A stretch of 64,000 nucleotides of DNA from a virus (taxonomy: Duplodnaviria > Caudoviricetes): the IMG/VR virus record IMGVR_UViG_3300037721_000031, positions 128,001 to 192,000 of that record. One strand, given 5' to 3'. Under the pieces are notes generated by a model. It saw nothing but the letters and a program-made list of their open reading frames with translations. It was not told the origin of the DNA and made no database searches. Made by a program: the position numbers and the translations under genes. Below, one piece after another: positions 30,878-39,769 of this stretch (positions are counted from its first letter, which is position 1; the number at the start of each line of letters is the position of its first letter).

Positions 30878-30947
30878 TTTATCCTCACTATGAGTCTGGT
30901 TACAATCACACTATTGCCATTTATAACATAAAAAAATTTTAACAGAA

Positions 30948-30976
30948 AAGAGGATGGGAGTTAATCCCATCCTCTT
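30948..30976 (-). terminator. Rho-independent terminator closing the 31-kb noncoding region
   Basis: aagaggatggga-gttaa-tcccatcctctt with a U-rich tail on the minus strand. Confidence 0.8.
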
Positions 30977-30989
30977 CCTGCCTACTACC

Positions 30990-37836: not shown

Positions 37837-38790
37837 TGGATTCGATGATAAAAGAAATAGTGACGGCCACGACACTGAACAATCGTCAGCGCTGCCGTCT
37901 CTACCCATAACAGGCAGCTTTACTTCCACTAAGACCAACTATGGTCTTAGTGGAAGTGGATTGTCGATCACATTCCCAATTGTAGTCAGGAATTATCAGC
38001 TCTGGCCAGATCCCTCCGGACAGCATTTGACATCATGTCTTGTGGACTAGACATCAAATAAAAGGCCATACACACAGGTCCCAGAATACTAACCTAAATC
38101 TCAGAGAACTTCTGATGAGGCTACCAACCTCAGCACTCTCACGAGTGTCAGACTCTTGCAAGATCTAATAGCTAAATATTCCTGGAGTCAAGATGATGGA
38201 AGAATATGATTAAAGTCATACCCGTATTCGTCTGTGGATGGCGAAACTGTTTACATCTATCGGATAAAAGACTACGTACAGACTCATTACTGTTACTCGG
38301 CTGTAGTATTACCGGCAACGTGTTTATCACTACGCTACCGATTCTATAAGCCTACATATTTGCCTGTACGTAGTAAAAACTGTTGAAAACACAATCTCAG
38401 TATCACGAGTAAATCTCGCCGTCTCGAAACGGCAAGACTGGTTGTTCGAGCAACCATCCAATATAAAGCTTCAGCAATATACCGAACAACTCATGATCTA
38501 GAGGCTGCATTCTCGAACCATTAGTTTAGTGGCTTCAACACTTGCGACTTTCGTCCAAGCTCCACCCTGCATCACCTAGGTTCAGACTTACAACTTGGCA
38601 GAAACAAGGAGTACCACCCCCTACGAATCTACCCATAGTGTTTCGATTAGTTGGTGCTAATCATCAGACCATATACCGTATTGAGAGTCTCAGTGTGTGT
38701 CTCCTGGACACACAACTCTCATAGTACATGACTCTTTAACACTTAAGATCAAATGACTCTCGGAAATACTCTCTGAGTCGTCTAACAAAT
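37837..38790 (-). ncRNA. Candidate large ornate structured ncRNA (~950 nt)
   Basis: No credible ORF; 16-bp hairpin 37922-37957; 11-bp long-range helix 38271-38281/38364-38374; GNRA-capped stems on the minus strand; possible 3' CCA at 37837. Confidence 0.55.
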
Positions 38791-39088
38791 TATAATGAGT
38801 TCGAATATTTTCTTACACATTTCAATCAAGAACAGCATACTTCTACACTATTCCACTTATGTCATATGTGTTTGAAATTTCTTTGATTCAAGAAATAAGA
38901 TACAGATAACCAGCGAATGCTGTTAGACAAACAATCTTGACATAATGTTTACGGAGGATACCGTTAGCAGCCACCAATGTCAATCCACAGATATTTTTAC
39001 CAACCATAATTACAGTCTTAGTCAAACTCATTTCGTTGTGCATATGCATCCTTAAGAGTACTGCAGTAGATTACTAGCTATTACTTCA

Positions 39089-39412
39089 TCAAAGAGTTTT
39101 AAGTCGTTGCTTGACTTCTTGATACATTATACTCACACATGCAGAAATTGACCCCTCATAATCTGAAAGTTTATCCCTGAGCCAGGTGTTTAGTCCTGGA
39201 CTAAACTTTTGTTCTTCTCGAAGGTTATCAAATTCTTGCACAACCTTCATTCCAACTTTATGAAATTTCTCACAAACATCTTCGGCATGCGCAATCAGCA
39301 TTTCTTGTATATCGAAGCCGTCATACCTTTGAGCCTCTTTTATTGCTGAAAATGCAACTTTTTGCACATCAATTGCATGTCGTACCAGCTTCTTCAACTT
39401 CTTCATTCCCAT
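39089..39412 (-). CDS. Hypothetical protein
   Basis: 107-aa ORF. Confidence 0.6.
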   Translation of the reverse strand: MGMKKLKKLVRHAIDVQKVAFSAIKEAQRYDGFDIQEMLIAHAEDVCEKFHKVGMKVVQEFDNLREEQKFSPGLNTWLRDKLSDYEGSISACVSIMYQEVKQRLKTL

Positions 39413-39445
39413 GATATTTCCTAGTTAAACTCATTAAAGCGTGGC

Positions 39446-39769
39446 TTAAAACAAGCTATCTGCTGTCCCTTTGTGGTCTACCTTATTCTCTTTACTATCG
39501 CGGTAACAAAACACAATAACGTAAGCAAGATTAGACAAGGTGAATGCAGCATATAACGTTATAATAACTGCCACTGCATTATTCGTATAAACAACTGGAG
39601 ATTCTTCCGTGATACCTAAATGGTATCTGATGATCTGTGCCAATATAAGAACACACGGTGCTAGCGCTAAAGTCCAACTAGTAGCCAAAGCAAACAACAT
39701 TGTTTTACTTAGTCTTTTCCTTAAAGCTTTCTGATTAGCTAAAAGATTATTGCAGGTAGAGTTATTCAC
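39446..39769 (-). CDS. Membrane protein (two transmembrane segments)
   Basis: Two hydrophobic stretches. Confidence 0.6.
   Translation of the reverse strand: MNNSTCNNLLANQKALRKRLSKTMLFALATSWTLALAPCVLILAQIIRYHLGITEESPVVYTNNAVAVIITLYAAFTLSNLAYVIVFCYRDSKENKVDHKGTADSLF

Follow-up and report, generated by a model that had tools for sequence, protein, structure and literature searches.

What does a phage encode in the DNA at the head of its tRNA cluster when that DNA contains no credible open reading frame (ORF)? We addressed this question in a 64-kb stretch of DNA, hereafter called the window, which comprises bases 128001-192000 of a 266.6-kb IMG/VR virus record with an estimated completeness of 98%. 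The locus very likely represents a genuine, selected, structured RNA gene and a new family of large ornate phage RNA, with its transcription, function, and oligomerization being inferred.

Genome setting and homologues of the locus

The major capsid protein encoded in this phage genome is of the PhiKZ type (PF25620, E 7e-194), and the closest cultured relative of the phage is Burkholderia phage FLC9, the capsid protein of which is merely 53% identical. Eight minus-strand tRNAs, identified with ARAGORN and Rfam, lie within window 32.4-37.8 kb, where HNH_3 endonuclease ORFs and three long stretches devoid of ORFs are found between them. Directly upstream of the first tRNA of this cluster in the minus-strand direction, tRNA-Ser(UGA), is the RNA locus studied here (Table 1). 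The 5' end of the RNA is uncertain and falls between about 38790 and 38830, and the non-coding unit is bounded on that side by a small hydrophobic ORF.

The absence of a credible ORF, claimed in the original prediction from sequence alone, was borne out, with no ORF of more than 60 aa in any frame. Reassignment of a single stop codon (TAG, TGA, or TAA read through) opened at most 143 codons and never spanned the region; we rejected an alternative genetic code because no single stop reassignment opens a frame across it. All of the hairpins, helices, and repeats that had been listed were likewise present where they had been placed. These include the 16-bp perfect hairpin (37922-37937/37942-37957), the 11-bp long-range helix (38271-38281/38364-38374), the GAGAGT...ACTCTC stem around the TGTGTGTC/GACACACA stem, and the CACTC-GTGA-GAGTG hairpin, while the GAC-GAAA-GTC, GCCGT/ACGGC, and GGTTG/CAACC stems each fall in consensus helices. 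The repeat TATGGGTAGA has exactly two copies in the 64-kb window (minus strand, 37900-37909 and 38628-38637), against a chance expectation of 0.19 copies. The one claim about the sequence that failed concerns the 3' end, which had been read as GAATCCA. This sequence is not conserved, with TTCA and TTGA in homologues, and is therefore not a CCA-like end.

Table 1. Features of the RNA locus and its borders, listed in the minus-strand direction (window coordinates)
Feature	Coordinates	Strand	Remarks
Small ORF	38888-39049	minus	53 aa, hydrophobic; upstream, bounds the non-coding unit on its 5' side
Promoter-like or regulatory motif TTTCAAnCACATATGACATAAnTGGAATA	38848-38877	minus	27-30 nt; 60-90 nt upstream of the first conserved helix; promoter function inferred
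Large ncRNA body	37826-38790	minus	~965 nt; no ORF, MFE z -8.6, homologues in six contigs, covariation
5' domain	38645-38786	minus	P1 (38780-38786 with 38663-38669) encloses three hairpins, followed by a GAUUAG/CUAAUC hairpin
Swappable peripheral hairpin GAGAGU...ACUCUC	38683-38720	minus	Sequence unique in the window
Near-invariant core	38386-38644	minus	Closing helix (38638-38644 with 38386-38392) around multi-helix junctions
GAAA-tetraloop hairpin	38540-38560	minus	One-nucleotide bulge; consensus helix
Adjacent hairpin pair with complementary loops	38412-38455	minus	CUCGAA 38445-38450, UUCGAG 38423-38428
Variable module	38271-38374	minus	Closed by the 11-bp long-range helix; enlarged in L022/L059
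Middle domain	38040-38270	minus	Dispensable; includes GUGA-tetraloop hairpin 38134-38147
Conserved 3' domain	37862-38023	minus	GCUGUCCGG hairpin, variable hairpins (16-bp, 37922-37957), terminal hairpin
Terminal hairpin	37862-37899	minus	Invariant apex GACGAUUGUUC; three stem versions
U-rich tail	37826-37861	minus	Unstructured; reaches the first base of the tRNA
tRNA-Ser(UGA)	37736-37825	minus	Directly 3' of the RNA; ARAGORN and Rfam

Relatives of the locus were reached through homologues of both flanking proteins in a large protein collection, which led to metagenomic contigs with the same order of genes around a 1.3-1.8-kb gap that contains none. Six of these contigs have a homologue of the RNA in their DNA, three of them covering its full length (L022, L054, and L055), two cut at the 3' end (L058 and L059), and one cut at the 5' end (L023). 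A further contig, P0004, has a neighbor identity of 77% and the same 1.3-kb gap, the DNA of which was not compared. No gene was called in the homologous gap of any relative, no ORF is conserved there, and stop codons occur in every frame in all homologues. Across the core (38386-38669), nucleotide identity reaches 95% with L022 and 90% with L054. For the flanking genes, the corresponding values are 90% and 85% for a 107-aa gene and 60% and 64% for the 53-aa ORF, and an 86-aa gene is 80% identical in the L022 comparison only. The RNA core is thus conserved equally to or above the flanking genes (95%/90% versus 60-90%). Similarity is distributed in mosaic blocks, with the window closer to L022 in some and to L054 in others. 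The homologue set is small, with approximately four independent lineages that come mostly from samples with adjacent JGI sample numbers, and the covariation described below therefore rests on few events.

The 53-aa ORF aligns with its L022 counterpart without indels at ~60% nucleotide identity, and its position is conserved, with genes of 47-52 aa called there in L054, L055, L058, and the P0004 contig. As a search query it matched itself alone. A separate observation from the same contigs concerns a PhoH-like gene of 617 aa in L022 (864-2717) and 260 aa in L054 (3909-4691). The L022 version has faint LAGLIDADG matches, and an intein or endonuclease insertion is possible.

Structure, covariation, and folding of the RNA

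RNAalifold predicted 132 pairs for the 5' domain and core (alignment A3), with 97.7% of cells paired, and 16 of these pairs show compensatory double changes compared to 0-2 in slid controls, in which the 3' partner was moved by one to three columns. The 3' domain has 57 consensus pairs with 93.8% of cells paired, and 15 are compensated compared to 3-5 in the slid controls. Across the 132 and 57 pairs, a total of 31 are supported by compensatory double changes, with controls at 0-5. Pairs were counted with a purpose-written script, and alignment A8, which mixes both strands, was left out. For the minus strand of the window, the alifold energies reached -118.5 and -52.1 kcal/mol, compared to -73.2 and -20.2 kcal/mol for the other strand, and many consensus pairs are G-U on the minus strand. 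Given the folding energy and the G-U pairs, we place the RNA on the minus strand, in the same polarity as the tRNAs. Individual helices illustrate the pattern: a 12-bp hairpin has four double changes in L054 with its loop unchanged, and in the terminal 3' hairpin 6 of 14 pairs are compensated across three stem versions around an invariant apex. The region is non-coding, conserved, covarying, minus-strand, modular, tRNA-linked, and outside known families. It meets the generic criteria of a functional structured ncRNA in being non-coding and conserved with strand-specific compensatory changes, in the absence of expression data.

The folding energy points in the same direction with less force. 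The minus strand has a minimum free energy (MFE) of -337 kcal/mol compared to -270 +/- 7.8 kcal/mol for dinucleotide shuffles (z -8.6), and the plus strand of the same region reaches z -5.6. For the L022 homologue, in which the domains follow one another in the same order, the value is z -8.05. Two coding segments of equal length, taken from the same window as controls, gave z -2.9 and -4.5; the fold remains exceptional, but the raw z therefore overstates it. When the whole genome was scanned in 480-nt windows, the three spanning the RNA were placed at about 7th-11th of ~1,110 on the minus strand. The MFE evidence is consequently moderate: the fold is unusual but not decisive alone, and better folding than in shuffles is a property of the entire genome.

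From 5' to 3', the RNA alternates between conserved and exchangeable parts. The 5' domain is closed by the 7-bp helix P1, and its consensus helices carry compensatory changes of AU to GC, GC to AU, and UA to CG. Its peripheral hairpin is replaced in L054, L055, L058, and L059 by a branched insert of 150-190 nt, the base of which (GAGAAU...AUUCUC) covaries. The core includes a three-way junction and holds most of the 132 consensus pairs. Its bulged GAAA hairpin is kept in all homologues, with one L058 substitution breaking one pair. The middle domain is near-identical in L054 and L055, and L022 lacks ~38066-38264 and has other hairpins instead. The bracket motifs of the 3' domain occur as two tandem copies in L054, and some variants only (L054:11750-11990 and L023:185-340) carry an optional accessory module of ~125-240 nt beside this domain. 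The accessory module contains a second minimal 3'-domain bracket (GCTGTCTGG...GACGATTGTTC), and its hairpins covary between L054 and L023. The U-rich tail is conserved in the window, L022, L054, and L055 and is unpaired in the centroid and consensus folds, bar a weak 4-bp consensus helix touching 37837-37840. A pairing of the two ends (37848-37858 with 38877-38887) was also considered and was rejected, as it is not conserved in homologues.

The loops CUCGAA and UUCGAG cap two adjacent hairpins that belong to the three-way junction of the core. The MFE fold has 19 hairpin loops, and these two are the sole pair with Watson-Crick complementarity of at least 5 nt, extending over 6 nt; the chance of a 6-nt match among 19 random loops is ~0.15. 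Both loops are invariant in all homologues, and the second stem carries four compensatory changes. Because the complementary loops never vary, a contact between them has no covariation support. We regard this pair as a candidate kissing-loop contact, inferred rather than shown, and, in the absence of oligomerization data, as the most promising hint of self-assembly.

Borders, neighboring elements, and known RNA families

The motif TTTCAAnCACATATGACATAAnTGGAATA is kept in all six homologues that reach it and comes after the small ORF and the hairpin of that ORF. One further genomic copy lies outside the window, at about 243,620-243,660 (L003:1480-1540), ~110 nt upstream of a 196-aa minus-strand ORF. 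The position of this second copy suggests a rare class of phage promoter or operator, and we read the motif as a putative phage-specific promoter or operator, a function that is inferred. Scans for sigma-70 promoters and for terminators gave results at chance level, and the motif contains no sigma-70 consensus; PhiKZ-type promoters are not recognizable by such scans. PhiKZ-type phages use their own polymerases, which fits the absence of a sigma-70 promoter.

At the other border, tRNA-Ser is adjacent to the RNA in the window, L022, and L023, and L054 and L055 have a degenerate tRNA-Ser-like element at the same spot (tRNA-Sec model, 37.7 bits). A tRNA-Ser(UGA) or Ser-like tRNA thus directly follows the RNA in five of the five copies with the 3' end on the contig. 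We propose that tRNA-Ser(UGA) may set the 3' end of the RNA via RNase P cleavage, with the processing being inferred.

Several other features of the cluster and its surroundings are recorded here as observations in their own right. A second long ORF-free element occupies window 34461-35830 on the minus strand. It has a sub-threshold group I intron match at 35173-35694 (22.8 bits, E 0.012), and ARAGORN, with introns allowed, calls an intron-containing tRNA within it (34483-34806, 231-nt intron). The 31-kb element (window 30878-31863, minus strand) is also ORF-free and is patchily conserved in L022 (81-84%), and its MFE z of only -4.4 is no better than the coding controls (-2.9 and -4.5). At window 36929-37004, Rfam identifies a full tRNA (51 bits) that ARAGORN missed, and the L022 equivalent is called as tRNA-Met. 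The end of this tRNA is overlapped by an HNH_3 endonuclease ORF (36990-37400, 136 aa), the L022 and L054 homologues of which have 313 aa. With introns allowed, ARAGORN reports a doubtful "tRNA-Phe with a 438-nt intron" around window 36929-37400. Finally, a distantly related 180-kb phage contig contains a tmRNA (L004:10936-11305) with the tag peptide AANDSTFAQRLAA.

One neighboring element shares sequence with the RNA family. The enlarged variable module of L022 and L059 is 79-90% identical to window 35002-35128, the RNA of the window itself has a shorter version of the module, and 57 columns are invariant across the four sequences. A module is thus common to the RNA and the neighboring element, and we therefore suggest that the RNA is built from modules moving between the non-coding elements of these phages.

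We searched widely for known RNA families at this locus. At the gathering score, cmscan with all 4,227 Rfam 15 families found tRNAs only in the whole window, and at E up to 10 it found nothing relevant over 37000-39600 and five homologous loci. The GOLLD model had no match at the gathering score in the whole window or at E up to 10 in 37000-39600 and the five homologous loci. ROOL (RF03087) had none at E up to 10 in the whole 266-kb genome or the homologues; 14 control genomes were also without a match, leaving this search without a positive control. Group-II-D1D4-1 (RF01998) was unmatched in the whole genome, and neither domain V/VI nor D1-D4 was matched in the region or its homologues. The group I intron model (RF00028) had no match at E up to 10 in 37000-39600 or the homologues, and the search could have seen group I introns here, given that the same model weakly matches the neighboring element. 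RNase P RNA, tmRNA, 6S, OLE, raiA, HEARO, and other catalogued large RNAs were not matched at E up to 10. ARAGORN found no tmRNA in the window and nothing in the RNA region even with introns allowed. BLAST of the region against GenBank phages matched the tRNA and nothing else, and full-text searches of a paper collection returned no description of such an RNA in jumbo phages.

The distribution of the RNA was examined with a covariance model, R1, built on the core junction (the 3' part of the core). R1 scores 115-141 bits in all homologues and has a single copy in the genome that contains the window. It matched nothing in nine other jumbo-phage records, of which eight were searched in full and one over a 12-kb locus, and nothing, with filters off, in the FLC9 locus and six other loci. 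The equivalent spot of FLC9 holds tRNAs only, with no covariance-model match. IMG/VR relatives reached through the 86-aa neighbor (37-53% identity) or the capsid (43-53%) had no sequence or R1 match, and contigs with 51-56% homologues of the 86-aa protein are densely coding and gapless. Exact-motif scans yielded zero hits or chance 18-20-mers in IMG/VR (five patterns), 30 hits in JGI metagenomes that were all chance, and zero in GTDB genomes. As far as the searched collections show, from which the closest records to the window may have been excluded, the RNA family is narrow and lineage-restricted.

These results bear on the interpretation in the original prediction, that of an ornate ncRNA forming a family of its own. 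The ncRNA reading is supported by the homologues, by a core conserved at least as well as the flanking genes, and by the 31 compensated minus-strand pairs. It was to be considered refuted if folding energy and covariation were no better than controls; both are clearly better, and it is not refuted. The claim of a separate family stands because no Rfam family matches; GOLLD, ROOL, RNase P, and group II were among those checked with cmscan. No similarity was detected to the 31-kb element, from which the RNA had been predicted to be distinct in sequence. This separateness needs qualification, in that ~130 nt of the variable module of L022 and L059 match the ORF-free element at window 35002-35160. 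Transcription and the suggested assembly into a cage or oligomer are not shown by this sequence analysis.

Explanations considered and comparison with known systems

Taken as a whole, and without expression data, the locus is best explained as the transcription unit of a ~1-kb trans-acting structured RNA on the minus strand at the head of the tRNA cluster, a reading that we hold with moderate confidence. In this model, transcription would start downstream of the conserved phage-specific promoter-like motif and would read through the RNA into tRNA-Ser(UGA). RNase P would cut at the 5' end of the tRNA and free the RNA with its U-rich 3' tail. The RNA is then predicted to fold such that a variable middle, in which modules are swapped, connects the invariant multi-junction core with the conserved 3' domain. 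By analogy with GOLLD and ROOL, it may function during infection as a particle of folded RNA whose task is connected with the phage tRNAs, and the CUCGAA/UUCGAG loops together with GNRA tetraloops may hold several copies together as a homo-oligomer. The promoter, the co-transcription, the RNase P-defined end, the oligomerization, and the tRNA-related role are all inferred.

A bolder version, which we consider unlikely, would add an independent third family to GOLLD and ROOL as phage RNAs that assemble on their own into a multimer or cage made only of RNA, with subunits joined by CUCGAA/UUCGAG and each made as a fusion to tRNA-Ser. If true, it would be the first such RNA in a PhiKZ-type (nucleus-forming-type) jumbo phage and would give RNA cages a functional connection with the supply or protection of phage tRNAs.

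The rival explanation that survives best, though still improbable in our view, is a cis-acting giant leader of tRNA-Ser(UGA) that controls the processing, folding, stability, or timing of the tRNA and is degraded after cleavage. It is favored by the direct fusion seen wherever a copy of the RNA includes its 3' end, with either tRNA-Ser(UGA) or a Ser-like tRNA as the partner, and by the conservation of the tRNA-proximal 3' domain, which is duplicated in one variant. However, an invariant multi-junction core in an RNA of ~1 kb far exceeds the need of any known tRNA leader, the RNA is intact in L054 and L055 although the downstream tRNA is degenerate, and the other tRNAs of the cluster have no such leader.

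Much less probable is a divergent group I or group II element without an ORF, either a self-splicing intron or a ribozyme derived from one, that settled in a tRNA region rich in introns and homing endonucleases. Points in its favor are the sub-threshold group I match and the intron-containing tRNA call in the neighboring element, the HNH_3 endonuclease genes nearby, and the module in common with that element. The bulged GAAA hairpin after AGC also loosely recalls group II domain V. Against it, at E up to 10 neither the window nor five homologous loci match the models for group I, group II domain V/VI, or D1-D4. Exons do not flank the unit, which instead lies between an intact small ORF with its stop codon on the upstream side and a complete tRNA on the downstream side. 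It also has a promoter-like motif of its own, and no homologue shows an intron-less host gene. The last alternative, a non-functional spacer, decayed gene, or recombination debris with incidental hairpins, could draw on coding controls of the same genome that also beat shuffles and on a middle region that is mosaic and partly dispensable, but it is all but ruled out by a core at least as conserved as the flanking genes, invariant loops and junctions, 31 compensated pairs versus 0-5 in controls, and stops in all frames of all homologues.

The preferred reading, a trans-acting structured RNA, matters in that very few bacterial or phage RNAs this large and complex are known, and cryo-EM structures of GOLLD and ROOL have not revealed what these two RNAs do. 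An unrelated, tRNA-fused family in the same niche would show that phages evolved such RNAs more than once, and a repeated origin would point to a general tRNA- or translation-linked role. The RNA also offers a compact new test case, with an invariant core, swappable modules, and one clear candidate intermolecular contact open to mutation.

We file the RNA as a new family of the GOLLD/ROOL kind because its setting and layout match these RNAs but the membership tests fail. In the MALAT1/mascRNA type, a long RNA is directly followed by a tRNA-like element and RNase P makes the 3' end. The likeness lies in the tRNA directly after a long structured RNA, with RNase P cleavage being inferred here, whereas that system is eukaryotic and unrelated in sequence. 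Group I and group II introns are likewise large structured RNAs with GNRA tetraloops, and the region has homing endonucleases and a probable group I intron; in contrast, our RNA has no model match, exon context, or intron-encoded protein and has its own promoter-like motif. ROOL is an ornate phage and prophage RNA found near tRNA islands, with junctions and a variable internal linker, and its conserved loop-loop contacts proved to be intermolecular (PMC12286853). The position at a tRNA island, the variable linker, and the complementary loops are shared, but ROOL has ~580 nt compared to ~965 nt or more here, and the host lineage here is a PhiKZ-type jumbo phage. GOLLD is a large (over 800 nt) phage and prophage RNA of unknown function beside tRNA genes, with separately conserved domains, a variable linker able to hold tRNAs, and prominent GNRA and kissing loops (PMC12286853). 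Our RNA is like it in size, in its phage location next to tRNA genes, and in having conserved domains around a variable linker; however, the universally conserved part of GOLLD is its 3' region, whereas the most invariant part of the RNA described here is the 5'-proximal core.
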